From Nitrosopumilus sp. (GTDB lineage: Archaea; Thermoproteota; Nitrososphaeria; Nitrososphaerales; Nitrosopumilaceae), in contig NZ_JAILWM010000002.1 in NCBI RefSeq assembly GCF_025698945.1, positions 166,680-230,679 on the forward strand: DNA of 64,000 nucleotides, read 5' to 3'. Below, piece after piece: positions 21,348 to 59,729 of this stretch. Under the pieces are notes generated by a model, which did not search any database, had not been told where the DNA came from, and was given only the letters and a program-made list of their open reading frames with translations. Numbering within the stretch: position 1 is the first letter of the stretch; each line of letters starts with the position of its first letter. Made by a program: the position numbers and the translations under genes.

Positions 21348-22211
21348 TTGAAACAAGTATACTCTCAAGTATCATCTGTCACTCCAAAACCATTTGTTAA
21401 ATGGGCAGGAGGAAAACGCCAACTAATTCCAATTCTAAATGAGAGTTTACCCAAATCTTTTGGGACTTATTATGAGCCATTTCTTGGAGGGGGAGCTTTA
21501 CTATTTCATATGCTAACTGAAAGAAATGGTCAAAAATGCAGCATCTCTGATTTGAACTCTGATCTAGTATTGGCATATACTACAATTAGAGATAGAATTG
21601 ACGAGCTTATTTCCTCTCTAAAAAATCATGAAAGAAATTATCAGAAAGATTCTAAATCATACTATTACTCCATTAGAGAATCAAATCCAAGAAGTGAAAT
21701 TGAAAAGACATCAAGATTGTTATTTCTCAATAGAACCTGCTTTAATGGATTATATCGAGTAAACAGCAAAGGAAAATTCAATGTACCTCTTGGAAGATAC
21801 ACCAACCCAAATATCGTAAATGAAGAAAATTTACGTTCAGTTAGTTTCATTCTCCAATCAAGCAAGGTTGCAATCAAATGTCGTGATTTTGAGGCAGTAC
21901 TGCAAGATGCCAAAAAAGGAGATCTAGTATACTTTGATCCACCATACCAACCAGTAAGCGATACTGCAAATTTTACCAGTTATACAAACAAGGATTTCAC
22001 AGATAGCGATCTTAGTAGACTAGCAGAACTTTGCTCAAAACTTGATTCAAAAGGATGTAAAGTCCTATTATCAAATTCAGATTCAAAACAAGTTGCCGAT
22101 ATGTTTTCAGGAAAAACTTGGAAAGTTAGAAAGATTCATGCAAATCGTTCAATCAATTCAAATTCTAAAAAGAGAACAGGTCACTTTGAATTATTGATTA
22201 AAAATTATTAG
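21348..22211 (+). CDS. dam: Dam/D12-class N6-adenine DNA methyltransferase
   Basis: KWAGGK, YEPFLGGGA, NGLYRVN, VYFDPPY. Confidence 0.9.
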   Translation: MKQVYSQVSSVTPKPFVKWAGGKRQLIPILNESLPKSFGTYYEPFLGGGALLFHMLTERNGQKCSISDLNSDLVLAYTTIRDRIDELISSLKNHERNYQKDSKSYYYSIRESNPRSEIEKTSRLLFLNRTCFNGLYRVNSKGKFNVPLGRYTNPNIVNEENLRSVSFILQSSKVAIKCRDFEAVLQDAKKGDLVYFDPPYQPVSDTANFTSYTNKDFTDSDLSRLAELCSKLDSKGCKVLLSNSDSKQVADMFSGKTWKVRKIHANRSINSNSKKRTGHFELLIKNY

Positions 22212-22273
22212 CCTTAGTTTATTTTCAAAAATTTTCAAATAAAAAATCTATAGAGTGTACTCTAGAGGATTAA

Positions 22274-22300
22274 GAAAATGAAAAGGAAGAGGTTGGGTGT
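22274..22300 (-). terminator. amoA 3' element/terminator, 26/27 identical to the amoB 3' element
   Basis: ACACCCAACCTCTTCCTTTTCATTTTC directly after TAA. Confidence 0.7.
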
Positions 22301-22951
22301 TTAGTCCCACTTTGACCATGCGGCCATCCATCTGTATGTCCAAGTGTTTAGTTTACAACCTAGTGCTGCAAACGTACATGCCAATACTGCACCTGCACCT
22401 GCACCTAAAGCCACTGGGCTGTTATAGAACTTTCCAACTTGAGGTTCTATCGGTGTCATGTATGGTGGCAATGTTGGTCTTGGATATTTGAATGCCGTTT
22501 CAAGTGGGTCTGCTACTGTTATCAGGTTTACCATGTTGAACAATGGTAAAGACATTCCTACTAGTACGCCGCCAAACAGTATCAAGGAGTGCTTGTTCTT
22601 CTTTGTTGCCCAGTAGACTAAATCCAACAGCATTGCTGATGGTAACCAAACTGGTGTTACAATGAAGTCATATGGATATCCGAGTGCAAACCATGCACCT
22701 TTTGCTACCCATGTGTATACTGTCATAATTAGAGCGTAGTACGTTGCTGTACCTGGAACACCTGTAAATGTTAGGTAATATGTTGCACCTACTACAAGCA
22801 TCAACGTTTGCGATATTGAGAATACCGTGTACGAAGTCCAAGCCCAGTCAGTGTAGAAGATGTAATCTCCTGCATTAATTGTTAACAGTGTTGAGTTAAC
22901 TGCAACTACTACTATGAATAAGTAGTGTGTACATCGTCTTAACCAGACCAT
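22301..22951 (-). CDS. amoA: Ammonia monooxygenase subunit A (archaeal)
   Basis: MVWLRRCTHY..NAGDYIFYTDWAW; 216 aa. Confidence 0.99.
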   Translation of the reverse strand: MVWLRRCTHYLFIVVVAVNSTLLTINAGDYIFYTDWAWTSYTVFSISQTLMLVVGATYYLTFTGVPGTATYYALIMTVYTWVAKGAWFALGYPYDFIVTPVWLPSAMLLDLVYWATKKNKHSLILFGGVLVGMSLPLFNMVNLITVADPLETAFKYPRPTLPPYMTPIEPQVGKFYNSPVALGAGAGAVLACTFAALGCKLNTWTYRWMAAWSKWD

Positions 22952-23058
22952 ATGAAGGTGAAGAAACGGTCAGTATATAAAATTTTAGAGTATGATGGAG
23001 ATCGTTGTTCTGAACCTAAAAATGAAAATGAAAAAGAAATGTCTGAAGGGTTTTCCTT

Positions 23059-23421
23059 CTAGTATCCAACATATAGTGATATGAATATTGTACCGGCTGT
23101 GACAGCAGCTACACTACCGCCAACGATACCATTACTATTTTTGTTGGAACCTTCTTCCATGACTTTAACACAGAAGATATAACCTATTGCCTCAATGATT
23201 GTCAAGACGATGAATGCAAAGTGACCACTAGAGGTTGGATATGCCCATGGATAATAGAAATATCCTGCTGCAGTACCACCAAAAGTTGCTAACCATGCTG
23301 CCCAGAATGAAATTGTAATCATACCAGTCATGTTTTCAACGCGCTTTCCAATCATTCGTTCTACATCAGCACTTGATGATCCACCAGCGCCGCCAGAACC
23401 GAATCCTTTAGGAAGAGTCAT
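23059..23421 (-). CDS. amoX: Ammonia monooxygenase-associated subunit X
   Basis: Membrane protein between amoA and amoC; FWAAWLATFGG, YPWAYP. Confidence 0.9.
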   Translation of the reverse strand: MTLPKGFGSGGAGGSSSADVERMIGKRVENMTGMITISFWAAWLATFGGTAAGYFYYPWAYPTSSGHFAFIVLTIIEAIGYIFCVKVMEEGSNKNSNGIVGGSVAAVTAGTIFISLYVGY

Positions 23422-23537
23422 TCTGGAATTATTCTAATAGAGAATCCTTTTAAGTCTTTCTTAAACTGAGGGAGGAAGTACGATCTACGTCTTTTGAAAA
23501 TAATAAAAAGGAAAAAAGTGTGCTTTTGCACTTTTGT

Positions 23538-24113
23538 CTATGGTATTGCTCTGCTGTACAATTTGCCTTCTAAGGCCATCTTGTACATTTCTGCAACATA
23601 TGGGTTCTCTCCAGGAGTTTCTGCACCTAGTTCTACGAGTCTAGCATATACTCTGACTACGTATGCAAGTGCACCCATGAATGCTACTACAACACCCATG
23701 TTAAACATCCAGTGATTTGGTACTGCAAAGATCTCCTCTACAAACCAGAAGTGCCACATCTCATTGACTCCAATTGTAAACATTGTTGCAAGGTAACCTA
23801 GAATGGTCATCTTCAAACCAGTGTTCATTGAATTATTTGGGCCTCTAAGAACTGGAACTTTTCTATCATAGATTGCTGCTGCTCCCCATCCAAGTGGTAA
23901 TGCGATGAAGTGGGAATACAACCACCAGTGAGCTGGTGTGAAAGCACTATCTCTGATAGATGTCTGATGTAGTGATCCATCAACGAAGTTATCAACTTCG
24001 ACTGATGCTGCAGTGGACCCCATAGCAATAACGATGAGCCAGATTTTTTTAAGTCTCTGAATCTCAACTTCTTTTGGGATTAATGCGGGCATCTGTGCCA
24101 TGTCTACAATCAT
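23538..24113 (-). CDS. amoC: Ammonia monooxygenase subunit C (start may be ATG 24101)
   Basis: MAQMPALIPKE, DNFVDGSLHQ, FTPAHWWLYSHF, EMWHFWF. Confidence 0.99.
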   Translation of the reverse strand: MIVDMAQMPALIPKEVEIQRLKKIWLIVIAMGSTAASVEVDNFVDGSLHQTSIRDSAFTPAHWWLYSHFIALPLGWGAAAIYDRKVPVLRGPNNSMNTGLKMTILGYLATMFTIGVNEMWHFWFVEEIFAVPNHWMFNMGVVVAFMGALAYVVRVYARLVELGAETPGENPYVAEMYKMALEGKLYSRAIP

Positions 24114-24259
24114 GTGAGTTCGGCATATAAAGTAAGAGTTTCAAAAATGGTTAGTTAGGTTCAAATTTTTTAGTAATTAGAGTAAAAATCAATGAAATTT
24201 TTTCTTTTCATTGATTTAGATTGAAATAATTTTATTATTATTTTTTCATTTTCATTGTT

Positions 24260-24283
24260 AATCATTGATGATAAACAATGATT
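24260..24283. promoter_or_regulatory. Perfect inverted repeat AATCATTG-N8-CAATGATT in the amoC/amoB divergent region
   Basis: Read directly; about 30 bp upstream of the amoB TATA-like catataa (24314-24320). Confidence 0.5.
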
Positions 24284-24355
24284 GGAGCATCGATCCTCGC
24301 TATCAAGGTAAAACATATAACGATGTGTATTTCTTTCTGAATATTAGGGATAACT

Positions 24356-24925
24356 ATGGTCGAAAAAAAGATTTTCGTATTTGGACTAGCTGTAGTACTT
24401 GCACTAGGAACTTTAGGTTTCAACTGGGTTGAATCCGTACTTCCAACTGCAGATGCACACGGTGTCCAAGCACAACTTCAGAGTCGTTTCATCAGAATTG
24501 AGGATGAAACCTTCAACAGACAATCCCTGCAAACTGGCGAAACCTTGACACTTCAAGGAACTTTAGTCAGTCTTGTAGAAAGAGACCTTAGAGGATGGCT
24601 ATCTATCTTCTCAGAGTCAACCAACGCAGGTAACAGATGGGAAATGTTGGCAAGAGACCCACCAGGAAACGTCTTTGACATTCCAGGTAACTCAGTCATT
24701 GATTACTCACTATCTGCAAAAGCACTTGAACCAGGTGTATACCACGTACACACCCAACTCAATGTAGCAAAAGTTGGTCCAGGACTTGGTCCAGGTCAAA
24801 CAGTAGTAGTTGAAGGAGATCCAATTATCAAACCAATCCCATATACCAACATAGCTTACCAATCAATTATCATTGGCGTTGGATATGTCATTACGTTTGC
24901 AACACGACCCTGGCAAGTAATATAA
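24356..24925 (+). CDS. amoB: Ammonia monooxygenase subunit B
   Basis: Signal peptide then AHGVQAQLQSRF; YHVHTQL; C-terminal anchor. Confidence 0.99.
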   Translation: MVEKKIFVFGLAVVLALGTLGFNWVESVLPTADAHGVQAQLQSRFIRIEDETFNRQSLQTGETLTLQGTLVSLVERDLRGWLSIFSESTNAGNRWEMLARDPPGNVFDIPGNSVIDYSLSAKALEPGVYHVHTQLNVAKVGPGLGPGQTVVVEGDPIIKPIPYTNIAYQSIIIGVGYVITFATRPWQVI

Positions 24926-24952
24926 ACACCCAACCTTTTCCTTTTCATTTTC
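24926..24952 (+). terminator. amoB 3' element/terminator
   Basis: ACACCCAACCTTTTCCTTTTCATTTTC directly after TAA. Confidence 0.7.
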
Positions 24953-25018
24953 AATGAACTTACGTTTTACGTAATTAGATAAACCAAGTTTTATCTTCTA
25001 GAAAATTAATATGAAAAT

Positions 25019-25333
25019 ATGCTAAGTTTTAAAATTACCAAACTAGATATTTTTCAAAGTTATTTTTTTGGCGAAGTAGAATTTCGTTCAGATAAATTCA
25101 AAGTAAATATTCAGAATCAAAGAAGAGGTAAAGTTCTCAAACTTCCTTTTGAGATAAAATCAAAAAATGAAAAAGTGATTGTCAGAATGACAGGGCCAGG
25201 TGATTTATTCATTGAAGATTACATCCCATACAAAGGAGAATCAGAATGGCTTGAAATTGACTCTGATGAAATTACATATTATATTGCAGATCATCAAGAT
25301 CAGTTAGATACAATTGAAATAATGATAGAGTAA
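25019..25333 (+). CDS. Conserved hypothetical protein downstream of amoB
   Basis: 104-aa ORF. Confidence 0.7.
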   Translation: MLSFKITKLDIFQSYFFGEVEFRSDKFKVNIQNQRRGKVLKLPFEIKSKNEKVIVRMTGPGDLFIEDYIPYKGESEWLEIDSDEITYYIADHQDQLDTIEIMIE

Positions 25334-25373
25334 AAGAAAGGACTTTAAGGTATATCTTGTCAAAGGCATCACG

Positions 25374-25907
25374 ATGAAATATCCTGGAATGGGTGATCCC
25401 TACAAAAGGAAAAAAACTATCAGATTTTTAATTATTACAGCAATCATAGCAATATCAGTAGGAGTAATCAGTTCCGTTCTTCAGGGTCAGTTTAGTCAAA
25501 ATGACCCTCTCAAAGTATGCATCAATGATAGAGAAACCCCTTACAAAATGAAAGTCACTTTGGAGTTAATTATTGATGGTCTTCCTACACCAATTCCTGC
25601 CAATATCAATGCAGGATTAAATGATGGTGAATGTAAAAGAACCATGTATACTCTAACAGATGATGGGACCATCTATGTTGAGTGGAAAGAGGAGTATCCA
25701 TGGGAAATTGGACACTTTTTGTGGATGTGGGATTTTCCTCTAAGAGATATGGATCAGGATAAATCTACATTTTATGTAAATGGTAAAGAATCATCACATT
25801 TCATCAATACGCCATTACAAGATGGATATCACTACAAGGGAGTATTTACTACAAAGGATTATGATTCATCCAAAGATTCAGATTTCCTACCAGAGTTAGA
25901 AAAATAG
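25374..25907 (+). CDS. Membrane-anchored hypothetical protein
   Basis: Basic N-terminus, one TM helix, two Cys in the soluble domain. Confidence 0.7.
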   Translation: MKYPGMGDPYKRKKTIRFLIITAIIAISVGVISSVLQGQFSQNDPLKVCINDRETPYKMKVTLELIIDGLPTPIPANINAGLNDGECKRTMYTLTDDGTIYVEWKEEYPWEIGHFLWMWDFPLRDMDQDKSTFYVNGKESSHFINTPLQDGYHYKGVFTTKDYDSSKDSDFLPELEK

Positions 25908-26008
25908 TATTTACGACTTTGATAAAAGATCAAATTTTGAAAAAATAGAATTAGTGCAAGTTAAAACTAGAGTTTCTAAAAATAATGAAAAGAAGAAAGG
26001 AAGTGATT

Positions 26009-26278
26009 TTACCAGTATTTACCGTTGTCTGGAATCAGACCAATACCTTCTCTTTCAAAGTGTCTGTCTAATTCGTCAACCCATCTCTCACGGTTGTCTT
26101 TGTAAGCCCATCCGTGTACACGTAACCAGAATGAGATAATTCCGAGAAGGAATATTGTGAACATCATGGTTCCGAAGATGTAAATCATTACATCATAGAA
26201 TAATGGATCATAGTTTGGTCCCAGTTGTCCTGTAATTGAAGACAGGATGCTTAGGAAAATTCCTACGATAGGAGTCAT
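26009..26278 (-). CDS. amoY: Probable AMO accessory subunit (AmoY-like)
   Basis: Start re-called to ATG 26278 with tatatat about 26-32 nt upstream; TM helix then WVDELDRHFERE; next to amo cluster and rps15; Y versus Z assignment is from memory and uncertain. Confidence 0.55.
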   Translation of the reverse strand: MTPIVGIFLSILSSITGQLGPNYDPLFYDVMIYIFGTMMFTIFLLGIISFWLRVHGWAYKDNRERWVDELDRHFEREGIGLIPDNGKYW

Positions 26279-26389
26279 TGTATATTTTGGCTCTATTTGT
26301 GCGATATATACATTTCTTTTATTATCAGAAAGTACGAGATCAGTATTCACTAAGAGTATCTAATAAAATAATAGAAAAGTGAGGTTTGA

Positions 26390-26722
26390 CTATCCTCTAC
26401 CCATTGCTGCGTATTTACCAGATCTTCCTCTAAGGAAGAAGGCGCCTGCAATACCACCGAAGACAGCTGCTGCAATAACTGATGCACCAACTACACCGCC
26501 TGCGTCAAGATATGGAGTTCCTGAACCCGATGCAGGGTTTGCTTCAGCAGCTTCAATTCTTCTTCTTTGAATTTCAAGTGCTTCTTCTAAGGTATAAGCT
26601 CCGGTTTCTCCTTGGCCGCCGACATTTCCCATGTACTGTGCAAATGCAACTGATGCTGCACCAATAGCACCGAAGAAAAATACAGCTAGCATTGTTGTTG
26701 TTAAGAGTATTTTTGTATTCAT
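26390..26722 (-). CDS. amoZ: Probable AMO accessory subunit (AmoZ-like)
   Basis: Signal peptide (AFAQ), extracellular helix LEEALEIQRRRIEAA, C-terminal TM; GC-richer like the amo genes; name assignment uncertain. Confidence 0.55.
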   Translation of the reverse strand: MNTKILLTTTMLAVFFFGAIGAASVAFAQYMGNVGGQGETGAYTLEEALEIQRRRIEAAEANPASGSGTPYLDAGGVVGASVIAAAVFGGIAGAFFLRGRSGKYAAMGRG

Positions 26723-26846
26723 ACGGTTTACCTGTTCGATTTGAACCCGGTGACTTATTTAACTTTTATTCTGAACCCCAATTTTTGGTATAATGTACGA
26801 GATCAGTAGAAGTAACGTTTAATTCTGTTCTAAATTGTGCAAAATC

Positions 26847-27296
26847 ATGGGACGAATGCACACTCATAGACATGGAAAATCACATTCCATAAGACCAGCT
26901 ACTCTACGTGCACCTTCATGGATTACACAGAGCCCAGCAGAAATTGAAGAATTAGTAATAAAATATTCCAAAGAGGGTTTAACTCCTAGCCAAATTGGAA
27001 TTAAACTAAGAGATCAGCATTCAATTCCATTAATCAAACCAATTACCAAAAAAGGCATCGGTCAAATTCTTGAAGAAAATGATTTGAGAGCAGAAATGCC
27101 AGAAGACCTAGATAACATTGTAAGAAAAGCAGTTGGTCTTCAAAAACACCTTAAAGAAAACAAGGGAGACAATAGAAATGTTAGATCTTTGGAATTAATC
27201 GAAGCCAAAGTACATAGACTATCTGTATATTACAAAAGGATAGGACGAATTCCAGCAAAATGGAAATATAAATCCGTGGTTGCTCAATTAGAGTAA
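26847..27296 (+). CDS. rps15: 30S ribosomal protein S15P/S13e (uS15)
   Basis: MGRMHTHRHGKSHS, SQIGIKLRD, PEDL; start re-called to ATG 26847. Confidence 0.97.
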   Translation: MGRMHTHRHGKSHSIRPATLRAPSWITQSPAEIEELVIKYSKEGLTPSQIGIKLRDQHSIPLIKPITKKGIGQILEENDLRAEMPEDLDNIVRKAVGLQKHLKENKGDNRNVRSLELIEAKVHRLSVYYKRIGRIPAKWKYKSVVAQLE

Positions 27297-28717
27297 TGAC
27301 AAAATCACTTGACGAATCACTTTCATTTTTCAAAGATAAAATTTCAGACTGTATAAAATCAAAAAAATCAATTTCCGTTACAACTCATATTGATTGTGAT
27401 GGACTTACATCAGGAAGTATTATTACCAAAGCACTAATCAGAGAAGGGGCAAATTGCACTGTTAGAACATCAAAAGAATTTAGTAAAAAAATTGTAGAAT
27501 CATTCAAAACAGATTCTAGAGACTTTCACATTGTAACTGATTTGGGAGGAGGGTTTGCAAAAGAACTCAATGAAACATTAGGAGATAATTGGATAGTTTT
27601 AGATCATCATCAAATTTCTGATGAAGAAATAGATAATGAAAATGTCATCAATGCATGGAGTTATGGAATTGATGGAGGAGTTGAGATATGTGCTGGAGGA
27701 ATGGCATATCTAGCATCAGTTGCCCTTGATGAGAAAAATTCAGATTTATCGTCTATTGCTGTGGTCTCGGCTTTAGGAGATAGACAAGATCAAGGAGAAA
27801 GAAAGTCATTTACTGGAAAGAATTTTGAAATTGCAAATACTGCCAAAGAATTAGGATTAGTGGATATTGATTTAGACTTGCTTTTAGTTGGCAGGGAAAC
27901 AAGACCACTTCCAGATGCATTAGCATTTACATCTCAGCCATTTATTGAAGGATTAACATGGAACAGAGATACTTGTCTTTCACTTCTTAATTCATCTGGA
28001 ATTAAGTTAAAAGATGGAGGTAGGTGGAGAGTACCTGCGGAACTAAATGAGGAGGAAAAAAGACAAGTTATTGAATCAATTTCCAAATTTACCTCTGGCA
28101 AAAACTCCACTGAGATAATGTCAGAGTTAATCGGATATACATACACATTTCCAAGAGAAGATAAGAGAAGTTTCTTGCGAGATGGAAGAGAATTTTCAAC
28201 TATGTTAAACTCGTGTGGGAGAATAAATCGATCTGGAGTTGGAATGGCAGTATGCATGGGTGATCGAAATAAGATACTAAGAGAGGGAGAATCAATTTTA
28301 ACAGATTATAGAAGAATGATCAGAGAGTACATGAATATTCTTTCAAATGAGAGATGGAGAATTTCAGAAAGTGAGACATGTGTGATGGTAAATGGGGAAG
28401 ACATTGTTCCTGAAACCATGACAGGTACCATTTCATCATTAATTGCAGGATCACCTAAAAATGCAGGAAAAATTGTAATTTTGAGAACCAAAGGAGAAGA
28501 GAATACAATAAAATTCTCATCAAGAAAATCCTTTGGTTGTAATTCAGATATCAATCTTAGTGAAGTAATGAGAATCGGTGCTGAAAAATTTGATGGTGTC
28601 GGGGGAGGGCATAATACAGCAGCTGGAGCAAAAATAACTAAAGACAAATTAGATGAATTTCTTAATTATTTAGAAGTAAATGTCGTTAACGTGTCAAGTC
28701 CAAGTAACAATCAATAA
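27296..28717 (+). CDS. recJ: RecJ-like DHH family phosphoesterase
   Basis: HIDCDG, TDLG, LDHH, GGGH; typical rps15-recJ-pcc1-serS-rps3ae cluster. Confidence 0.88.
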   Translation: MTKSLDESLSFFKDKISDCIKSKKSISVTTHIDCDGLTSGSIITKALIREGANCTVRTSKEFSKKIVESFKTDSRDFHIVTDLGGGFAKELNETLGDNWIVLDHHQISDEEIDNENVINAWSYGIDGGVEICAGGMAYLASVALDEKNSDLSSIAVVSALGDRQDQGERKSFTGKNFEIANTAKELGLVDIDLDLLLVGRETRPLPDALAFTSQPFIEGLTWNRDTCLSLLNSSGIKLKDGGRWRVPAELNEEEKRQVIESISKFTSGKNSTEIMSELIGYTYTFPREDKRSFLRDGREFSTMLNSCGRINRSGVGMAVCMGDRNKILREGESILTDYRRMIREYMNILSNERWRISESETCVMVNGEDIVPETMTGTISSLIAGSPKNAGKIVILRTKGEENTIKFSSRKSFGCNSDINLSEVMRIGAEKFDGVGGGHNTAAGAKITKDKLDEFLNYLEVNVVNVSSPSNNQ

Positions 28718-38939: not shown

Positions 38940-39638
38940 TTACTTTGAAAATGAAAAGGTACTAGATTTAGTTTCTTTACCATTATCAACTTTAAGAGTA
39001 TAAGTTCCAGAGTTTTCCCATCCAGCACCACCAGCAATAGCTAATGTGGAAAATCTCCCATTACTTTTAGTAGAAACTTGTTCGGCCCAAACTAATTCAT
39101 TTTCATTATTTAGAATTGATAAATTTATAGTTCCAGAGGTATCAGAAATGCCGCTAATTGAAATTAGATCCTTTTTAGAATATGATGACAAGTCAGTTTG
39201 AACAGAAAGAGAAGTAGGTTCTGTACTAGTTGGAGTATTAACTAATGTAGGTGATGTTTCAGAAATATCACTAAATGAAATAACCAAAGCAATTATTATT
39301 ACTAATGCAACACCACCAATACCCATGTAAAGTTTGGAATTTTTTACATTAGAAGAATATTTGGGTTGGGGTTTAGTTTGATATGTTTGATTTTGTTGAA
39401 TTAATTTAATTTCAGGTAGAACAACATCAGGAATTACTGGTTTATCTTCTTGTGTAGGAGTTTTACTGATTGGTTTTTTGCCAAGATGTTTTTCTGCTAA
39501 TTGCCTTACATAATTTCTTTCATAATTACTTATGACTTCATTATTTTCACATGCTCTACAAATTTGTTTTAGAATGCGATCATCTCCAAAATCTTTGTCT
39601 AAAAGGGCCTTTACGTCATCTAACAGAGGATCATTCAT
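38940..39638 (-). CDS. Membrane protein with cytoplasmic N-terminus and extracellular Ig-like domain
   Basis: Central TM GIGGVALVIIIALVISF; C-terminal VQTDLSSY..GTYTLKV. Confidence 0.7.
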   Translation of the reverse strand: MNDPLLDDVKALLDKDFGDDRILKQICRACENNEVISNYERNYVRQLAEKHLGKKPISKTPTQEDKPVIPDVVLPEIKLIQQNQTYQTKPQPKYSSNVKNSKLYMGIGGVALVIIIALVISFSDISETSPTLVNTPTSTEPTSLSVQTDLSSYSKKDLISISGISDTSGTINLSILNNENELVWAEQVSTKSNGRFSTLAIAGGAGWENSGTYTLKVDNGKETKSSTFSFSK

Positions 39639-41936: not shown

Positions 41937-44105
41937 TCATGGATCGGGGCAACCGTCTTCATCTCGGTCACCATCATAATCCTCAGGATCAGATGGACAC
42001 AAGTCAAGATCATTTATGATACCATCCAAATCATCATCATGGACAAATCTTTGCTGTTCTGGAGCAATATCTGGGCAGCCATCATGATCATTGTATTTAT
42101 TCCATGTTTCAGGTTGAGTAGGACACAAATCTATATTGTCATAATAGCCATCACCATCAGAGTCAATTTTTGTAGGTGTAGTTGATTGTGCTGCTAGAAC
42201 ATCTGGACAACCGTCCCAATCCAAATATCCATTAAAGTTCTCTTGTTCATCAAGACATGCATCCCATCTGTCATCTATACCATCTCCATCAGTATCTGGG
42301 AAACTATAAGATGGAATAATGGAGCCTGTTGCATCTGGACAACCGTCTTCGTCTTGATAAAAGTTGTAAGTTTCAGGTTCTAGTGGACATGCATCAGAAA
42401 TATCTGGAATTCCATCTCTGTCAGAATCTAGTATGGAGTTAAAGCTATCAGGACAACCGTCTTTGTCTTGGAATCCATTGTAAGTTTCTGGTTGATTTGG
42501 GCAGGAATCTAGATTATCAACAATACCATCACCATCTGAATCTGCTGTTGGCTTGTTATCAGCAATAGTATCTGGACAGCCATCTGTGTCTTGGAATCTA
42601 TTGTAAGTTTCTCTAGCTTTTGGACATTGATCAATATTATCAGGAATTCCATCAAAATCAGAATCACCAAATGAATCATAAGCTATAGTATCAGGACAAC
42701 CGTCTTCGTCTTGGAATTGATTATATCTTTCAGCAATAGTTGGACATTCATCAAAAATATCTGGAATTAAATCATAATCAATGTCAGATAATGCAGATTT
42801 TGAAACTCCAGGTACATCAGGGCAACCGTCTCTATCAAGATAATCATTATAGTTTTCCTTTTCATCAAGACATGCATCCCATCTGTCATCTATACCATCT
42901 CCATCAGCATCAGGAAATACGTAGGATGATACAACAGTTCCAGAAGTATCAGGACAACCATCAGCATCTTTGAAAAAGTTGTAAGTTTCAGGTTCTAAAG
43001 GACATTCATCTAAAACATTTGGAATTCCATCCATGTCAGAATCTAGTGTTGAGTTAAAGCTATCAGGACAACCGTCATCATCTAAAAATCCATTATATGT
43101 TTCTGGTTGATTGGGGCAATGATCTAGATTATCAACAATTCCATCTCCGTCAGAATCATAAGTAAAAGTATTTGTTCCAGTAGAGTCAGGGCAACCGTCA
43201 TCATCTTGGAATTTGTTGTAAGTTTCTTTAACATAAGGGCATAAGTCATATTGATTTGAAATTCCATCTCCGTCAATATCACTAGTTACTTCATATTCTA
43301 CAGTGTCAGGACAACCGTCATCATCTTGGAATTTGTTAAAATTTTCACGTTCCAATGGACATACATCACGAGAATCTGGAATACTGTCATAATCAGAATC
43401 TATCAAGGCTTCAGAAAATCCAGTAACATCGGGGCAGCCATCCCAGTCAAGAAATCCATTGTAGTTTTCAGGTGAATTCAAGCATGCATCCCATCTGTCA
43501 TCTATTCCATCGCCGTCAGTATCTGGGAATTGGTATTGAGATGTAGTAGAGTCAACAGAATCAGGACAACCGTCATCATCTTGGAATCTATTGTAAGTTT
43601 CAGGTTCTAATGGACATGCATCTAGCGTATCAGAAATGCCATCTCTATCTCTATCAGTTAAGGTTAATGCATTTTCTGGACAACCGTCCTTATCATCAAC
43701 TCCATTGAAAGTTTCTGGTTGATTTGGACACAAGTCCATATAATCAGGATAGCCATCCCCGTCAGAGTCAGCAATGTCTTTTGCCCCACCTGGAGCAATA
43801 TCAGGACAACCGTCATCATCTTGGAATTTGTTGTAAGTCTCTTTTACAGTTGGGCAATTATCAATATGATCTTGAATTCCATCATAATCCACATCATACC
43901 ATGGAACAAAATCAGCAGGACACCCATCAATGTTATTGCCATATTGAGGATCATAATCTTCTTTTAGATGAGGGCAAAAGTCCACATCATTAGGAACACC
44001 GTCACCGTCAGAGTCAATTTCAACATTAGCATATACACTGCCAGGTAGTAGCCCAATAGTAGATGTAAGTAAAAGTAGAAAACCTAAGAGAAATTGTTTT
44101 TTCAT
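41937..44105 (-). CDS. Secreted thrombospondin type 3 repeat protein, copy 1 (722 aa)
   Basis: Signal peptide then about 20 DxDGDGIxDxxDxCP..DGCPD units. Confidence 0.9.
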   Translation of the reverse strand: MKKQFLLGFLLLLTSTIGLLPGSVYANVEIDSDGDGVPNDVDFCPHLKEDYDPQYGNNIDGCPADFVPWYDVDYDGIQDHIDNCPTVKETYNKFQDDDGCPDIAPGGAKDIADSDGDGYPDYMDLCPNQPETFNGVDDKDGCPENALTLTDRDRDGISDTLDACPLEPETYNRFQDDDGCPDSVDSTTSQYQFPDTDGDGIDDRWDACLNSPENYNGFLDWDGCPDVTGFSEALIDSDYDSIPDSRDVCPLERENFNKFQDDDGCPDTVEYEVTSDIDGDGISNQYDLCPYVKETYNKFQDDDGCPDSTGTNTFTYDSDGDGIVDNLDHCPNQPETYNGFLDDDGCPDSFNSTLDSDMDGIPNVLDECPLEPETYNFFKDADGCPDTSGTVVSSYVFPDADGDGIDDRWDACLDEKENYNDYLDRDGCPDVPGVSKSALSDIDYDLIPDIFDECPTIAERYNQFQDEDGCPDTIAYDSFGDSDFDGIPDNIDQCPKARETYNRFQDTDGCPDTIADNKPTADSDGDGIVDNLDSCPNQPETYNGFQDKDGCPDSFNSILDSDRDGIPDISDACPLEPETYNFYQDEDGCPDATGSIIPSYSFPDTDGDGIDDRWDACLDEQENFNGYLDWDGCPDVLAAQSTTPTKIDSDGDGYYDNIDLCPTQPETWNKYNDHDGCPDIAPEQQRFVHDDDLDGIINDLDLCPSDPEDYDGDRDEDGCPDP

Positions 44106-44183
44106 TGTCTATGACACCGCTATTATCACGTATTTATTAAGTCTCACGTTAAATAGATTCTTCTAAATTTTGAAAAATAACAA

Positions 44184-46352
44184 TCATGGATCAGGGCAAC
44201 CGTCTTCGTCTCGGTCACCATCATAATCCTCAGGATCAGATGGACACAAATCAAGATCGTTTATGATTCCATCCAAATCATCATCATGGACAAATCTTTG
44301 CTGTTCTGGAGCAATATCAGGACAGCCATCCCAATCTAAGTATTTGTTCCATGTTTCAGGTTGAGATGGGCAAGAGTCAACTACATCTGGATATCCATCA
44401 TTGTCAGAGTCAGCATAAACTGGAATAGTAGACTCTGCTCCTGGAACATCAGGGCAACCGTCTTTGTCCAAGTAACCATTATAATTTTCTGGCTCGTTAA
44501 TGCAGGAATCCCATCTGTCTTCAATTCCATCACCGTCAGTATCTGGGAATTGGTATTGAGAAATTGTAGAGTCAACAGAGTCAGGGCAACCGTCATCATC
44601 TTGGAATTTGTTATATGTCTCAGGTTCTAATGGACATGCATCAGATACATTTGGAATTCCATCTCTGTCAGAATCAAGTTGTGTTGATAATCTATCAGGA
44701 CAGCCATCTTTGTCTTGGAATCCATTGAATGTTTCAGGTTGAGTAGGACAGAGATCTATTCTATCAGGAATTCCATCACCGTCAGTATCTGCTGATAATT
44801 TGTCATCAGCAATATAGTCTGGGCAGCCATCCCAATCTTGGAATTTATTGTATGTCTCTTTTGCAAGTGGGCATTGATCTACATCATCAAGGATACCATC
44901 ACCGTCAGAGTCACCATTGAATGGAAGAAGAACGCTATCAGGGCAACCGTCATCATCTTGGAATCCATTGTATCTTTCTGCAATAGTTGGACAATCATCT
45001 CTATCATCTGGAATTCCGTCATAGTCAGTATCAATTAATTCTAGGGAGGTAGCACCTGGAACATCAGGGCAACCGTCTTTGTCCAAATAACCATTATAAT
45101 TTTCTGGCTCGTTAATGCATGAATCCCATCTGTCTTCAATTCCATCACCGTCAGTATCTGGGAATTGGTATTGTGATACCAATGAATCAATAGTATCAGG
45201 GCAACCGTCTAAATCTTGGAATCTATTGTAAGTTTCAGGTTCTAATGGACATGCATCTAAATTATCTGGAACACCATCTCTATCTTTGTCATTGAAACCT
45301 AATGAATCAGGGCAACCGTCTTTGTCTTGGAATCCATTGAATGTTTCAGGTTGAGTAGGACACAAATCTATTCTATCAATTATTCCATCACCGTCAGTAT
45401 CTGCTGCAAATTTGTCATCAGCAATATGATCAGGGCAGCCATCCCAATCTTGGAATTTATTATATGTTTCAGGGCTAAAAGGACACAAATCGTTTTGATC
45501 TGGAATACCGTCACCGTCTGCATCACCAGTGAATTTGTACTCAATTAAATCTGGACAACCGTCATCGTCTTGGAATTTATTATAATTTTCACGCTCTAAA
45601 GGACAATCATCTCTATCATCTGGAATTCCGTCATAGTCAGTATCAATTAATTCTAGGGAGGTAGCACCTGGAACATCAGGGCAACCGTCTTTGTCCAAAT
45701 AACCATTATAATTTTCTGGCTCGTTAATGCATGAATCCCATCTGTCTTCAATTCCATCACCGTCAGTATCTGGGAATTGGTATTGAGTTGTAGTAGAGTC
45801 AACAGAATCAGGACAACCGTCATCATCTTGGAATCTATTGTAAGTTTCAGGTTCTAATGGACATGCATCTAAAGGATCAGAAATGCCATCTCTGTCTGAA
45901 TCTTTTAGACTCAATGCATTTTCAGGACAACCGTCCTTATCATCAACTCCATTGAAAGTTTCTGGTTGATTAGGACACAAGTCCATATAATCAGGATAGC
46001 CATCTCCGTCAGAGTCAGCAATGTCTTTTGCCCCACTTGGAGCAATGTCAGGACAACCGTCATCATCTTGGAATTTATTGTAAGTCTCTTTTACAGTTGG
46101 GCAATTATCAATATGATCTTCTACTCCATCAAAATCAGCATCATACCATGGAACAAAATCAGCAGGACACCCATCAATGTTATTGCCATATTGAGGATCA
46201 TAATCTTCTTTTAGATGAGGACATTGATCGATATCATTAGGAACACCGTCACCGTCAGAGTCAATTGCTTGATTAGCAAAGGCACCTCCAGGAAACATTC
46301 CTATTGTAGATGTAAGTAAAATCAAAAATCCTAAAAGAAGTTGTTTATTCAT
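44184..46352 (-). CDS. Secreted thrombospondin type 3 repeat protein, copy 2 (722 aa)
   Basis: Same architecture and length as copy 1; identical last about 40 aa. Confidence 0.9.
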   Translation of the reverse strand: MNKQLLLGFLILLTSTIGMFPGGAFANQAIDSDGDGVPNDIDQCPHLKEDYDPQYGNNIDGCPADFVPWYDADFDGVEDHIDNCPTVKETYNKFQDDDGCPDIAPSGAKDIADSDGDGYPDYMDLCPNQPETFNGVDDKDGCPENALSLKDSDRDGISDPLDACPLEPETYNRFQDDDGCPDSVDSTTTQYQFPDTDGDGIEDRWDSCINEPENYNGYLDKDGCPDVPGATSLELIDTDYDGIPDDRDDCPLERENYNKFQDDDGCPDLIEYKFTGDADGDGIPDQNDLCPFSPETYNKFQDWDGCPDHIADDKFAADTDGDGIIDRIDLCPTQPETFNGFQDKDGCPDSLGFNDKDRDGVPDNLDACPLEPETYNRFQDLDGCPDTIDSLVSQYQFPDTDGDGIEDRWDSCINEPENYNGYLDKDGCPDVPGATSLELIDTDYDGIPDDRDDCPTIAERYNGFQDDDGCPDSVLLPFNGDSDGDGILDDVDQCPLAKETYNKFQDWDGCPDYIADDKLSADTDGDGIPDRIDLCPTQPETFNGFQDKDGCPDRLSTQLDSDRDGIPNVSDACPLEPETYNKFQDDDGCPDSVDSTISQYQFPDTDGDGIEDRWDSCINEPENYNGYLDKDGCPDVPGAESTIPVYADSDNDGYPDVVDSCPSQPETWNKYLDWDGCPDIAPEQQRFVHDDDLDGIINDLDLCPSDPEDYDGDRDEDGCPDP
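44989..45785. repeat. 185-bp exact internal repeat in TSP3 copy 2 (44989-45173 = 45601-45785), period 612 bp
   Basis: Direct comparison; a third near-identical partial copy at about 44440-44560. Confidence 0.85.
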
Positions 46353-46364
46353 TTCCAGATACTC

Positions 46365-48812
46365 CTATTGTCCAGGTGCTGTGTCGGGACAACCATCTGA
46401 ATCTTGATAATTATTGTAAGTCTCAGGCTCTAGTGGACATAGATCATATTCATTGATAATATCATCTAAGTCAGCATCATGTTTGTATCTTGATTGCTCT
46501 GGAGATATATCAGGACAACCATCTGAATCAGAATATTTGTTCCAAGTTTCTTTTTCATTTGGACACAAGTCATTATCATCAAATATTCCATCGCCATCAG
46601 TATCAACTCTTAGATTTCCTGTAGGTACTGTATCAGAACAACCGTCATAATCTGCAAATCGATTCCATGTTTCGTTTTGGGTAGGACACATATCCATTAC
46701 ATCTGGAACACCGTCACCGTCAGAGTCAGGTTGTGTATCATCAACATCAGGGCAACCGTCTTCATCTTGGAATCCATTATAGTTTTCAGCAACTAGTGGA
46801 CAATCATCATCAATATCATTAATTCCGTCATTATCTGAATCAATCACAAATGATGTTGTAATGGTATCGGGACAACCATCATCATCTTGGAATCTATTGT
46901 AAGTCTCTTTTACAGTTGGACATGCATCTATTGCATCAGGAATTCCATCTCTATCACGGTCATTAGATGGAATATAACTATCAGGACAGCCGTCTCTATC
47001 TAGAATTCCATTGAATGTTTCTGGTTGATTTGGACAGTGATCATTATAATCATTAATTCCATCACCATCTGAATCTGGCATTCCTTTGTTATCTGCTATA
47101 TTATCAGGACATCCATCCAAGTCTTGGAATTTATTATAAGTTTCAGGTGAATTTGGGCATTGATCAGTTTTATCAGGAATTCCATCATAGTCTGAATCTA
47201 AACTAGTTACATAATCTGGATAATCTGGGCAACCATCATCATCTTCGAATCCATTATATCTTTCTCTCTCAAGTGGACATTGATCTACTCCATCTAAAAT
47301 ACCATCAAAGTCAGAATCAAATTCAGATGGATTGTCTGGGCAACCGTCTTGATCTTGATATCTATTCCATGTTTCAGCTTCAGTTGGACATTGATCTAAT
47401 TCATCTCGAATACCATCACCGTCAGAATCTAAAACTGCAAGATCTGGACAACCGTCTTGATCTTGATATCCATTAACTGTTTCTGGTTCAAGAGGGCATT
47501 TATCATTCAAATCAATTATTCCATCACCATCAAAGTCGGCATTAGATAATCCAGAGACACCGTCTGGACAGCCGTCATCATCTTGGAATCCATTATAAGT
47601 TTCAGGGTTAAGTGGACATTTATCTAATTCATCAGGAACACCATCTCTATCTCTATCTTGAGTGGATGCAGAATCTGGACAGCCGTCTCTATCAAAAATG
47701 CCATTGAAAGTTTCTGGTTGATTTGGACATAAATCTGCAAAATCATTTATTCCGTCTCCATCAGTATCAGGAATTCCTTTATCACTTGTTACAAAGTCAG
47801 GACAACCGTCTTGATCTTGGAATCTATTGTAAGTTTCTTTTACTTGTGGACATTGATCAATACTGTTTGGAATTCCATCTAGGTCTGAATCAACATCACT
47901 TGAATATGGAGGAATATCAGGACAGCCGTCATCATCTTGGAATCCATTATATCTTTCTGGTTCAAGTGGACATACATCATTAACATCTTTAATTCTGTCA
48001 CCATCAGTATCATCTAGTACTCCATCAAAAGAAGGAGCTGAATCAGGACAACCGTCATAATCTGCGAATCTATTGAAAGTTTCTGGTTCATTTGGACAAA
48101 TATCAAATTTGTCATCAATACCATCACCATCTTTATCATTAAATGTAGTATCTAAAACGACATCAGGACAGCCGTCTGTATCCCTATAACCATTAAACAC
48201 TTCGGGTTCATTTGGACATAAATCAATTTTATCTTGTAAACCATCATTATCTGAATCAATAAAAGAAGAATCTGTTGCATTATCAGGACAGCCGTCTTGA
48301 TCTTGGAATCTATTGTAAGTCTCAGCACTTAGAGGACATTTGTCTAAGTTATCTGGAACTCCATCTCTATCTCTATCACCGGCACCAAAAGTATCAGGAC
48401 AACCATCAGTGTCTAAAATACCATTGAATGTTTCTGGTTGATTTGGACAATTATCTACCAAGTCAACTATACCATCACCGTCAGAATCAGGCAATCCACC
48501 TTTTCCACCAGATGGAGATAAATCAGGACAACCATCCTCATCTTGGAACTTATTGTAACGCTCTTTAAGATTTGGGCATTGATCTAAATGATCTGGAATT
48601 CCATCAAAGTCCTCATCATACCATGGAACAAAATTTGATGGGCATCCATCTATTGCACTCTCATAATCTTCTTGAAGATTTGGACATAAGTCAATTGAAT
48701 CATCAACGCCATCTCGATCCAAGTCAATTTCAGCAAAAGCTGGACTTAGAGGAATGCTGGTTAAAGTAGTAACAAGCAAGACTAGAAATGGTAAAATATG
48801 TATTTTTTTCAA
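46365..48812 (-). CDS. Secreted thrombospondin type 3 repeat protein, copy 3 (815 aa)
   Basis: Signal peptide plus TSP3 units, more diverged than copies 1 and 2. Confidence 0.9.
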
Positions 48813-55842: not shown

Positions 55843-56145
55843 TTATAGTGCTGCGTCTTCTGCCCAACCTTTGATGAAGATACCGTTTTTGTGAAGAGGT
55901 ACTGGTTGTCCAGCGGTGTAATTCATTGGTCTCATCCAAAAGATTGACTTTGTTGGGCATACACCTATGCATGCACCATCAGAAATACATCTTTCTGGAT
56001 AGAAAACAAATGCTTTACCTCTCTTCCAGCCTTCAACAGGTTTTACTCTAAGGACATCTGGACCAAGAGTTGTACAGATTTCTACACATAGTGCACATCC
56101 GATACATCTTTGTTCATCAATGTCTGGAAGTATTGCTATTGGCAT
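55843..56145 (-). CDS. 2[4Fe-4S] ferredoxin
   Basis: CIGCALCVEIC and CISDGACIGVCP. Confidence 0.93.
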   Translation of the reverse strand: MPIAILPDIDEQRCIGCALCVEICTTLGPDVLRVKPVEGWKRGKAFVFYPERCISDGACIGVCPTKSIFWMRPMNYTAGQPVPLHKNGIFIKGWAEDAAL

Positions 56146-58869: not shown

Positions 58870-59220
58870 GTGAAGGATATAGATTTTAAATTAAATTCTA
58901 CAGATATTCATCCAAACACAGAGATAAAGGGAGTAATTTCAGTATCTTATCCAGGAAGATATGATGGAGTTGTAATTAATACTCAAATTTCTGATTCAAA
59001 TGAGCACATTATTTACAAATCATATAATGGGAAAAATATCTCTCAAAATGTTTCAAGATTGTTTATCAACAAAGATGTAATGCCTGATAATACTGCAGAG
59101 TTTACTGCACTAATTCAATTTGAACCAAAGCAAGAACATGAGATAAAATTCAGAGCATCAATTATTGAACAACACAAAGAAATTGAAAGTCAGATAATTT
59201 TTGCAAAATATTCTGTCTAG
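58870..59220 (+). CDS. Hypothetical protein
   Basis: 116-aa beta-rich ORF. Confidence 0.65.
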   Translation: MKDIDFKLNSTDIHPNTEIKGVISVSYPGRYDGVVINTQISDSNEHIIYKSYNGKNISQNVSRLFINKDVMPDNTAEFTALIQFEPKQEHEIKFRASIIEQHKEIESQIIFAKYSV

Positions 59221-59678: not shown

Positions 59679-59687
59679 AATTTTTTT

Positions 59688-59715
59688 ACTCTCCCAAGTT
59701 CTTATAAAGCTTGTT
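59688..59715 (-). promoter_or_regulatory. Cupredoxin promoter, 23/28 identical to the Rieske promoter
   Basis: AACAAGCTTTATAAGAACTTGGGAGAGT. Confidence 0.7.
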
Positions 59716-59729
59716 TAGGATTTTTGGAA

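Follow-up and report, generated by a model that had tools for sequence, protein, structure and literature searches.

Organization of the amo locus

The DNA analyzed here is a 64-kb stretch of a Nitrosopumilus genome (the window), which carries the genes amoA, amoX, amoC, amoB, amoY and amoZ. The features identified at their 3' ends are listed in Table 1. A preliminary description of this DNA assigns a TATA-like box to every amo gene, which is in line with Bartossek 2012 and with our reading of the window sequence.

Table 1. Coding sequences, 3' elements and hairpins at the ends of the amo genes (positions in the window)
Feature	Position	Strand	Remarks
amoA CDS, 216 aa, stop TAA at 22303-22301	22301..22951	-	ORF list; 97-100% identity with the AmoA of 80 Nitrosopumilus loci; identical products carry Pfam Archaeal_AmoA
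amoA element, head ACACCCAACC, G-free and A/C-rich, directly after the stop	22291..22300	-	RNA contigs extend into the head
amoA element, T part TCTTCCTTTTCATTTTC, two U4 tracts with CA between, UCUUCC before	22274..22290	-	
Hairpin UAGAG-UACA-CUCUA after the amoA T tract	22247..22268	-	Fold; between amoA and a convergent methyltransferase gene
amoB CDS, 189 aa, stop TAA at 24923-24925	24356..24925	+	PF04744 Monooxygenase_B; sources call the product ammonia monooxygenase
amoB element, head ACACCCAACC	24926..24935	+	RNA contigs extend into the head
amoB element, T part TTTTCCTTTTCATTTTC, three U4 tracts split by CC and CA	24936..24952	+	
Hairpin UUACGU-UUU-ACGUAA after the amoB T tract	24960..24974	+	Fold; upstream of the next gene's promoter
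amoX 3' end: hairpin GAAGG-AAAAC-CCTTC, spacer AGACA, then TTTCTTTTTCATTTTCATTTTT	23018..23059	-	
amoC 3' end: hairpin AAAAGTGC-AAAA-GCACACTTTT, then TTTTTTCCTTTTTATTATTTTC	23496..23537	-	
amoY 3' end: AATCACTTCC-TTTCTTC-TTTTCATTATTTTT	25976..26008	-	amoY by synteny with Nmar_1506 (PMC10030591)
amoZ 3' end: TCAAACCTCAC-TTTTC-TATTATTTT-ATTA	26360..26389	-	amoZ by synteny with Nmar_1507 (PMC10030591)

A shared element after amoA and amoB

The same sequence, TAA followed by ACACCCAACCT(C/T)TTCCTTTTCATTTTC, is present at the end of both amoA (22303-22274, minus strand) and amoB (24923-24952, plus strand), the element proper beginning in each case at the base that follows the stop codon, which closes a reading frame of 216 aa (AmoA) or 189 aa (AmoB). 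The two 30-nt arms, stop TAA included, are identical at 29 of 30 positions; the sole mismatch, C versus T, falls on base 12 after the stop. A search allowing up to 3 mismatches found only these two copies of the 30-mer in the 64 kb, for a chance expectation of 0.00 matches (100 dinucleotide-preserving shuffles). The near-identical 27 nt noted after both stops by the preliminary description are thus borne out.

The amoB element contains three U4 tracts inside 17 nt and G is absent from all of its 27 nt, while the amoA element contains two U4 tracts plus UCUUCC. In the minimum-free-energy fold the amoB element is mostly unpaired. In amoA, part of the head forms weak pairs with the end of the coding sequence, and the T tract pairs through its last bases with a downstream A run; folding is significant for neither element (z of -0.9 and -1.1). 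Neither gene has a hairpin before the T tract, their hairpins coming after it. No complementary partner sequence to the element was found within the 64-kb window, and the covariance models of Rfam 15 gave 0 matches at E <= 1 on both strands of 21500-27500. A scan for sigma-70 promoters and hairpin terminators returned nothing at the element; such a scan is not applicable to archaea.

Conservation across related genomes

We compared about 90 Nitrosopumilaceae loci, GC-rich genomes included. Both genes nearly always carry the head followed by TTTTC(C)TTTTCATTTT, according to a common plan in which a G-free A/C-rich head (..CCAACC) precedes two or three U4 tracts. Pairwise identity of the core is at least 0.9 for amoA (CTTTTCATTTT, 90 unique loci) as well as for amoB (68 unique loci), compared with 0.68-0.71 at synonymous codon positions (codon position 3) and 0.3-0.5 in spacer DNA nearby or beyond. 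The CA and CCAACC positions are also conserved above the synonymous-site level and persist in two unrelated genes despite deep divergence. These sequence comparisons show the element to be under purifying selection.

Over the loci, the head consensus is A(n)[C/T]CCAACC for amoA and ACAACCCAAC(C) or ACCACCCAACC for amoB, and most genomes have typical gene-specific versions that are stably different, AACTCCAACC..ATTA for amoA versus ACAACCCAAC..ATAG for amoB. A relative that is 95.7% identical in DNA has both 30-mers unchanged, C/T difference included, and diverged flanks. Heads of amoA and amoB from one genome are more alike than those from different genomes (permutation p = 0.0015), a co-variation to which we give no weight because few clades, with perhaps 2-4 independent events, stand behind it; in some clades both heads have changed together (e.g. 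CCAAAACC in L002, L234 and L235). One distant amoB locus (L237, 66% identity) has the same architecture of A/C head and T/C tract with a different core. The AmoB-like representative P0125, considered as a further distant locus, was rejected, being located in a non-amo operon. Some genomes have the amo genes in a rearranged order. As for the hairpins that follow the T tracts, the stems TAGAG/CTCTA and TAGGG/CCCTA after amoA are present in other loci, and the TTACG..CGTAA hairpin after amoB is conserved in most.

Distribution of the element among gene ends

The preliminary description considered that the tails of the other amo genes differ from those of amoA and amoB. This does not hold for amoX (TTTCTTTTTCATTTTCATTTTT) and amoY (CTTTTCATTATTTTT), which carry the same T core, nor in some genomes for amoZ: the core TTTTCATT is common to amoX, amoY and, in these genomes, amoZ. 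In some other genomes amoZ has the full TTTTCCTTTTCATTTTATTA, and in some its 3' end reads AACAAACCTCAC-TTTTCCTTTTCATTTT-ATTA. The amoX 3' end forms inverted repeats (I5/I6) with the amoB element. The motif is present in graded form in 5 of the 6 subunit genes; amoC, the most abundant transcript, is without the core. The short hairpins announced at the ends of amoC and amoX are indeed present, and in this window a ferredoxin gene and a 70-aa ORF likewise have one immediately ahead of the T run. Extra copies of TTTTCATT occur in the amoB-amoC spacer; they are specific to this genome, and 53 of 71 other spacers have none.

Pairs of U4 tracts distinguish amo gene ends from others: 314 of 330 amo gene ends, versus 23 of 747 other ORF ends, have two or more U4 tracts separated by 12 nt at most. 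The related DNA searched with a profile of the element amounts to about 1.1 Mb; amo genes gave the only matches, in a sample without other top-expressed genes (S-layer, amt, nirK). A G-poor spacer before a T run was also observed after an AsnC-like gene (A/C-rich ACACCC) and after the ferredoxin gene (ACATTC); the terminators of both genes are sequence-conserved too. A metagenome-wide scan with the 16-mer TTTTCCTTTTCATTTT was discarded as a specificity test, being too unspecific: 117 of 120 stretches were chance matches in unrelated organisms and 3 were amo loci, which is uninformative on other Nitrosopumilus genes.

Transcript ends at the element

RNA evidence came from metatranscriptome contigs of a marine relative and of the window's own lineage. 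The window matches a metagenome-derived genome, the best share in a DNA run being 0.82, and the RNA runs containing it were metatranscriptomes only. Contig ends are blurred by k-mer assembly and random-priming bias, and those of amoB are coarser than base-level resolution. Two amoA contigs of the marine relative end close together, one of depth 388 on the final base of the T-rich tract (+28 after the stop) and one of depth 2715 at +38; in a random-primed run the amoA RNA stops already in the head, at +7. There was no amoA RNA beyond about +38 in runs X41, X42 and X44 or in the polyA library X45, and none beyond +28 in X54. Low-depth contigs (6-13x) extend past the element in runs X46 and X56, by DNA carry-over or weak read-through. 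In the lineage of the window, RNA depth reaches 0 inside the element, coming from about 2500 in amoB and about 600 in amoA, and DNA run X25 stays flat at both genes. For amoB the depth drops from about 2500 to 19 in the head, and RNA contigs are absent from 24934 on, DNA run X25 being flat at 6.6x. These contigs confirm that the element lies within the transcripts.

Three high-depth marine metatranscriptomes gave RNA contigs unbroken from amoC through amoX into amoA and absent beyond amoA and amoB. At the equivalent sites of the marine relative, contigs run through the amoC end into amoX and through the amoX end into amoA; because of this passage into amoA, the amoX terminator is leaky or internal. 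The single contig of the marine relative that passes the amoA T tract ends in the 5' arm of the equivalent hairpin, past which there is no RNA, and in the window lineage no RNA reaches this hairpin. Searching metatranscriptome contigs with a 54-nt reference for other motif-bearing transcripts returned only the amoA contig. One amoZ RNA contig was mis-placed onto the amoA T core. Some contigs end fused to adapters at the border of head and T tract. These ends were rejected as true RNA 3' ends, since other libraries pass the T tract; they lie at the 3' edge of GC-rich hexamers, one of them just before the stop codon, and therefore fit random-priming bias.

A probable terminator of amoA and amoB transcripts

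Transcripts of amoA and amoB probably terminate, and have their 3' ends formed, at this element. The element looks like an unusually strong, sequence-conserved stop signal rather than a new kind of regulatory code. It is located after the stop codon at the end of a unit, contains at least two U4 tracts and has no need of an upstream hairpin; at contig resolution, RNA ends on the U tract or shortly past it, and read-through is low. The signal would be composed of two parts: an unstructured, G-free, A/C-rich spacer directly 3' of the stop codon, then two or three U4 tracts split by C or CA (UUUUCC-UUUUCA-UUUUC). The U tracts would act as pause sites of RNA polymerase, and the multi-U4 RNA would be bound by the KH domains of aCPSF1/FttA, the archaeal homologue of CPSF73, after which the transcript may be released. 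Related versions of the signal are present at amoX, amoC, amoY and amoZ. A role of aCPSF1/FttA is suggested by literature on other archaea and on a Cenarchaeum orthologue, and the CA and the head may contribute.

The presence of nearly the same sequence in two unrelated genes may be due to common selection. The genes amoA and amoB face outward at both ends of the amoA-amoX-amoC / amoB cluster, whose transcription is orders of magnitude above that of its neighbours, and the same near-optimal, very tight terminator could have been selected in both because they form the outward-facing ends of an extremely transcribed cluster.

High-efficiency archaeal terminators have at least two U4 tracts and are bound by the KH domains of aCPSF1; the efficacy of termination and the strength of aCPSF1 binding both rise with the number of U4 tracts, and the thaumarchaeal aCPSF1 of Cenarchaeum complements depletion in Methanococcus (PMC8716108; PMC7515710). 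The closest known counterparts are the terminators mapped by Term-seq in Methanococcus maripaludis (Yue 2020 PMC7515710, Li 2021 PMC8716108). These also lie just after the stop, have two or more U4 tracts in about the last 30 nt before the RNA 3' end, require no hairpin and become tighter with the number of tracts. Unlike them, the amo element has conserved non-U positions (CC, CA) and a conserved A/C-rich G-free head, and its motif is limited to one gene set in the sampled DNA; the 3' ends are here at contig level. Several points count against the terminator reading: a plain U-tract terminator needs neither the exact CA nor the CCAACC head, a motif seen at amo genes only, in a sample without other top-expressed genes, is unexpected for a purely generic terminator, and the same T core at amoX lets some transcription pass.

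Other systems offer more limited likenesses. Hairpin followed by U tract, as in bacterial intrinsic terminators, is found at amoX, amoC, the ferredoxin gene and the 70-aa ORF, unlike amoA and amoB, whose hairpins follow the T tract. The C-rich, G-free and unstructured amo head recalls the C-rich, G-poor, unstructured RNA of rut sites, an analogy of composition only; the head has only about 10 nt, unlike rut sites, and Rho is not known from archaea. Spitalny and Thomm reportedly described in 2008 consecutive oligo-dT terminators at the histone gene of Pyrococcus furiosus and proposed a polymerase III-like recycling. That gene is likewise very highly expressed with several short T tracts, and the proposed recycling echoes the "recycling signal" mentioned in the preliminary description; the sequences are unrelated and the likeness in recycling is an analogy. 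Histone pre-mRNA is cleaved after ACCCA. The amo head contains ACCCA, but no stem-loop precedes the head in amoA or amoB. With respect to CPSF73-type endonucleases, the element offers unpaired CA (CCCAAC, UUUUCAUUUU) beside U tracts, a resemblance only. At least in Pyrococcus, aCPSF1 prefers single-stranded CA (Phung 2013, PMC3553952); in Methanococcus it was reported to cut past the U tract instead of at an internal CA (PMC7515710).

Alternative explanations

The preliminary description had proposed a shared 3'-UTR code matching the output or stability of the AMO subunits. A shared signal does exist, in that the element is non-random and common to amoA and amoB in almost every related genome. 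No sign of a separate code at the post-transcriptional level emerged: the T part corresponds to a high-efficiency archaeal terminator and RNA stops there. In the DNA sampled, the element was neither common after unrelated genes, nor unshared by amoA and amoB elsewhere, nor outside the transcripts, the three outcomes that the preliminary description had regarded as contrary to its proposal. A binding site for a dedicated factor would be an addition to the terminator reading and is not needed to explain the data.

Such a site, at which a dedicated protein (Sm-like, exosome) or a small RNA would recognize the CCAACC head and the UUUUCAUUUU core, seems unlikely. Acting on the joint stability or output of the subunit mRNAs, it would match stoichiometry across separately transcribed genes, and others found no common promoter motif for the six amo genes (PMC10030591). 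The restriction of the motif to amo genes in about 1.1 Mb, with its graded form in 5 of 6 subunit genes, fits this idea, although the restriction could reflect a sample without other top-expressed genes. Conservation of the non-T positions (CA, CCAACC) above synonymous sites argues in the same direction, tempered by the sequence conservation of other terminators, and so does the within-genome likeness of the heads, tempered by the small number of events behind it. According to its title, one paper reportedly found that amoA mRNA persists during starvation, which also counts for such a site. Against it stand the missing core at amoC, in spite of its transcript abundance, and the failure to find a complementary sequence in the 64-kb window or an Rfam family in 21500-27500. 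A more elaborate version, which we consider rather doubtful, makes the element an AMO-specific 3'-end "address": a two-part signal with a sequence-specific reader would give the mRNAs a common protected 3' end, hence a common half-life and matched output. One possibility is that aCPSF1 cuts the single-stranded CA of head or core with the U tracts as docking site, by analogy with a eukaryotic cleavage site and its U-rich downstream element; another possibility is an Sm-like or exosome factor as reader.

Concerted evolution without shared function, in which gene conversion, recombination or cluster inversion would keep a 30-nt inverted repeat alike, is very improbable. The two arms do form the best inverted repeat of the region (I1, 97%), the 95.7%-identical relative keeps both 30-mers while its flanks diverge, and joint head changes and rearranged amo orders exist. 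However, 27-30 nt is very short for homologous exchange, conversion would erase the stable gene-specific versions seen in most genomes, and related motifs follow amoX, amoY and amoZ outside the inverted-repeat arrangement; conservation across deep divergence demands selection anyway. Chance likeness of two pyrimidine-rich tails in an AT-rich genome has practically no credit, since, common as pyrimidine tracts are after archaeal genes, it is already refuted by 0 matches in 100 shuffles and by the element following both genes in about 90 genomes.

Significance for ammonia-oxidizing archaea

Few groups of microbes on Earth are as abundant as these archaea, and few of their mRNAs are as abundant as the AMO transcripts; amoA mRNA is a widely used environmental marker of activity. 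We found no Term-seq or terminator study for ammonia-oxidizing archaea in the searchable literature, and the element read as a terminator would give a first concrete picture of a strong terminator in these organisms. It would account for the protection of neighbour genes against a cluster whose transcription is about a thousand times stronger. It would also provide a natural substrate for thaumarchaeal aCPSF1, U4-CC-U4-CA-U4 with a CA-rich head. Genetic tools, which ammonia-oxidizing archaea still lack, would gain a compact terminator part that is probably very tight. If the element proved AMO-specific genome-wide, it would represent a missing layer in the balancing of six separately transcribed subunit genes.

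The shared element and its conservation

The ammonia monooxygenase (AMO) cluster of the window shows the Nitrosopumilus gene arrangement. TAA-ACACCCAACCT(C/T)TTCCTTTTCATTTTC was found immediately 3' of the coding ends of both amoA and amoB, with 29 of 30 bases identical. These are the sole copies with at most 3 mismatches in the 64 kb, where none is expected by chance, and the post-stop element claimed in the preliminary description is confirmed. The divergent spacer between amoC and amoB has two extra copies of TTTTC(T/A)TTTTCATTG, which lack conservation: 53 of 71 other spacers are without any.

Features of the amo region and of other genes considered
Feature	Position	Strand	Remark
amoA	22951-22301	minus	
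amoX	23421-23059	minus	
amoC	24101-23538	minus	
amoB	24356-24925	plus	
amoY	26350-26009		small gene; synteny with Nmar_1506 (Hodgskiss 2023, PMC10030591)
amoZ	26722-26390		small gene; synteny with Nmar_1507 (Hodgskiss 2023, PMC10030591)
Extra TTTTC(T/A)TTTTCATTG copies	24198-24217 and 24237-24260	plus	
GATC motif, amoX	~23478-23491	minus	GACGTAGATCGTAC
GATC motif, amoA	22995-23008	minus	AACGATCTCCATCA
GATC motif, amoY and amoZ	26329-26345 and 26792-26808	minus	TACTGATCTCGTACTTT
GATC motif, amoB	~24283-24292	plus	ATCGATCCTCG
D12-class (Dam-like) DNA methyltransferase	21348-22211	plus	
Thrombospondin type 3 repeat genes	41937-48812	minus	722, 722 and 815 aa
Ferredoxin	55843-56145	minus	
Beta-CASP metallo-beta-lactamase protein	56612-57877	plus	421 aa
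Probable complex III operon	59217-61905	minus	

The 3' flanks of both genes were compared in 80 loci surrounding AmoA in species genomes of Nitrosopumilaceae and 15 more obtained by exact-protein look-up, and the element proved common to both genes in nearly all loci. The amoA end reads TAA-A(n)[C/T]CCAACC-TTTTCC-TTTTCATTTT-ATTA and the amoB end TAA-ACAACCCAAC(C)-TTTTCC-TTTTCATTTT-(A/C)TAG, a pattern present also in Nitrosarchaeum and Nitrosotenuis. GC-rich genomes, whose spacers are otherwise GC-rich, still keep a C-rich head and CTTTTCATTTTC, and in a relative at 95.7% DNA identity both 30-mers are exactly unchanged while the sequence beyond them has diverged. Among unique loci (90 amoA, 68 amoB) the core CTTTTCATTTT has a mean pairwise identity of 0.9 or more, compared with 0.68-0.71 at the third positions of codons in the neighbouring coding ends and 0.3-0.5 for the spacer further out; the element is under purifying selection. 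In some clades (loci L002, L234, L235, L231, L075) the amoA and amoB heads have changed in parallel, e.g. CCAAAACC in both genes, or ATCCAAC in both genes of L231 (permutation test for co-change within a genome, p = 0.0015, resting on few independent events).

In a distant ammonia oxidiser (L237:5570-6250; AmoB 66% protein identity, 45% GC genome), the amoB 3' end is TAA-ACGCCACTTCCC-TTTTTCC-TTTC.. (also written TAAACGCCACTTCCCTTTTTCCTTTCAATTATCAATTTTC), with an architecture like that of Nitrosopumilaceae and a different core. This one distant amoB suggests that the exact motif may be specific to Nitrosopumilaceae. It stands alone, its neighbours being radA and ribosomal or RNA polymerase subunit genes. 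Another locus (L236:6001-6561) encodes an AmoB-like protein (59% identity over 166 residues) within a co-directional operon whose genes are unannotated; other amo genes are absent from its surroundings, and the AmoB fold may here serve a role outside AMO.

Transcription of the element

RNA depths were taken from Logan contigs of metatranscriptomes, the marine strain studied being essentially identical to locus L034. Its amo genes are covered at a depth of 10^3-10^5, the amoB-amoC spacer at zero depth. Contigs connect the amoC 3' end without a break to amoX and on to amoA (L034:5398-6116, corresponding to about 23540-22840 in the window). The terminators of amoC and amoX are therefore leaky or internal, and there is some read-through RNA spanning amoC-amoX-amoA despite the separate TATA boxes. 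Depth drops about 20-50 fold after amoC. At the amoA end, one contig (depth 9904) extends into the head, another (depth 388) has its 3' edge at stop +28 nt, on the final base of the T-rich tract, and a third, from a polyA-selected library (depth 2715), at stop +38 nt. RNA of this strain past these ends was found neither in the four runs examined nor in sequencing run X54; two further marine runs gave low-depth contigs (6-13x) past the element, attributable to DNA carry-over or weak read-through. For the window lineage, RNA depth across the amoB head goes from ~2500 to 19 and then 0; at amoA it goes from ~600 to 21 and then 0 over the stop and head. Coverage in a DNA run that contains 82% of the words of the window stays level at 6-12x over both flanks. 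Adapter-fused contigs ending at ..CCCAAC and ..GTGGGAC were rejected as true 3' ends, these edges most likely marking the final GC-rich sites for random priming ahead of a U-rich tail that cannot be primed.

Taken together, the element does not fall outside the transcripts: amoA contigs reach its head and T tract, the mRNA 3' end lies, at contig resolution, at or just past that tract, and in high-depth runs read-through is below detection at the cluster's two outward-facing ends.

Distribution among gene ends

All 61 copies of CCAACCTTTT in 867 kb of loci are directly 3' of amoA or amoB. Two or more U4 tracts spaced by 12 nt or less occur at 314 of 330 amo gene ends versus 23 of 747 other ORF ends, and C and G make up 42% and 4% of the 10 nt preceding the first tract in amo genes, against 19% C in other genes. 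A profile HMM of the element, searched across 1.87 Mb of DNA, matched amoA (88), amoB (72), amoZ (10) and amoX (9). The remaining 21 matches all have E >= 0.11; 19 are in loci picked for carrying the 16-mer, and the other two are a mislabelled amoX and a weak coding-region match (window 38947-38960). Far from being common after unrelated genes, the element follows none in the sampled DNA, i.e. the surroundings of amo loci or of two other window genes; the other top-expressed genes of these organisms (S-layer, amt, nirK) lie outside it.

The other subunit genes end as follows: amoX in a short hairpin, then AGACAC-TTC-TTTTTCATTTT; amoY in AATCACTTCC-TTTCTTC-TTTTCATTATTTTT; amoZ in ..ACCTCAC-TTTTC-TCTTATTTT-ATTA, or in some genomes the full ..CCTCAC-TTTTCCTTTTCATTTT-ATTA; amoC in a hairpin, then TTTTTTC-T.TTTT-ATTATTTT. 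In all six genes, several short T tracts come after a spacer that is A/C-rich or forms a hairpin. The preliminary description rightly gave amoX and amoC short hairpins; its different pyrimidine tracts hold only in part, since TTTTCATT is common to five of the six genes (amoC is without the core), and sharing is wider than stated there.

The general style is not unique to amo, as two control genes with tails conserved across genomes indicate: an AsnC-like gene ends in TAAACACCC-TTTTTTC, and the ferredoxin gene in a hairpin, then ACATTC-TTTTTTC-TTATTTTT. Non-amo T runs show a mild C excess at the base before the run, some G depletion and no more. The three large genes in tandem whose products carry thrombospondin type 3 repeats and are probably located at the cell surface have plain T-rich tails, with no C-rich head. 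The probable respiratory complex III operon (cytochrome b, a plastocyanin-like copper protein and a 201-aa protein) ends without any multi-U4 signal; the 201-aa protein has a twin-arginine-type signal, CxH/CxxH motifs and no Pfam match, and appears Rieske-like by motif reading.

Other features of the region

A GATC-containing motif conserved across loci lies just upstream of the promoters of amoX, amoA, amoY, amoZ and amoB, and is possibly identical to the upstream motif of group I.1a in Bartossek 2012. A methyltransferase gene adjoins amoA in most loci checked, and GATC methylation may be linked to amo transcription. This gene is convergent with amoA in the window and a few other genomes, versus co-directional in most (compare L221-L233), where it ends beside a tRNA gene; the difference suggests a local inversion. 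The beta-CASP protein, which is without KH domains, looks like an aCPSF2-type ribonuclease; its pairing with the adjoining ferredoxin gene is kept in ten genomes.

A probable terminator shared by the boundary genes

The T part of the element (U4-CC-U4-CA-U4) matches a high-efficiency terminator of the archaeal literature, and in this part it resembles the multi-U4 terminators of M. maripaludis. There, more U4 tracts bring higher termination efficacy and aCPSF1 dependence, the KH domains of this termination factor bind RNAs with at least two U4 tracts, and aCPSF1 of the thaumarchaeon Cenarchaeum symbiosum can replace that of Methanococcus, with unchanged dependence on U4 (PMC8716108; PMC7515710). 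Pyrococcus aCPSF1 preferentially cuts at single-stranded CA (PMC3553952). The head contains CA, is G-free and folds as largely unstructured; the cutting preference possibly accounts for this head and for the conserved CA. As its two boundary genes, amoA and amoB form the edges of a divergent cluster that is transcribed orders of magnitude above its neighbours. The simplest account of their near-identity is that both were selected toward the same tight transcription terminator, which the element probably is.

A dedicated factor-binding site equalising AMO mRNA stability or output would agree with the restriction to amo genes in the sampled DNA, the conserved non-U positions and the weak co-change of heads, with its few independent events; no partner was found in the window, amoC lacks the core, and we consider it rather unlikely. 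Gene conversion between the two arms of the 30-nt inverted repeat is very improbable, because the amoA and amoB versions stay stably gene-specific in most genomes. Chance resemblance is excluded, with none expected and the same element across related loci.

Rfam has no family at the amo cluster region, Bartossek 2012 describes conserved promoter-side motifs of archaeal amo genes and nothing about the 3' side, Hodgskiss 2023 (PMC10030591) found that the genes share no promoter motif and is silent on termination, and a literature search on Nitrosopumilus or Nitrososphaera with Term-seq, U-tract or terminator returned no relevant paper. The element thus adds to a known kind of signal a sequence-conserved example not described so far.
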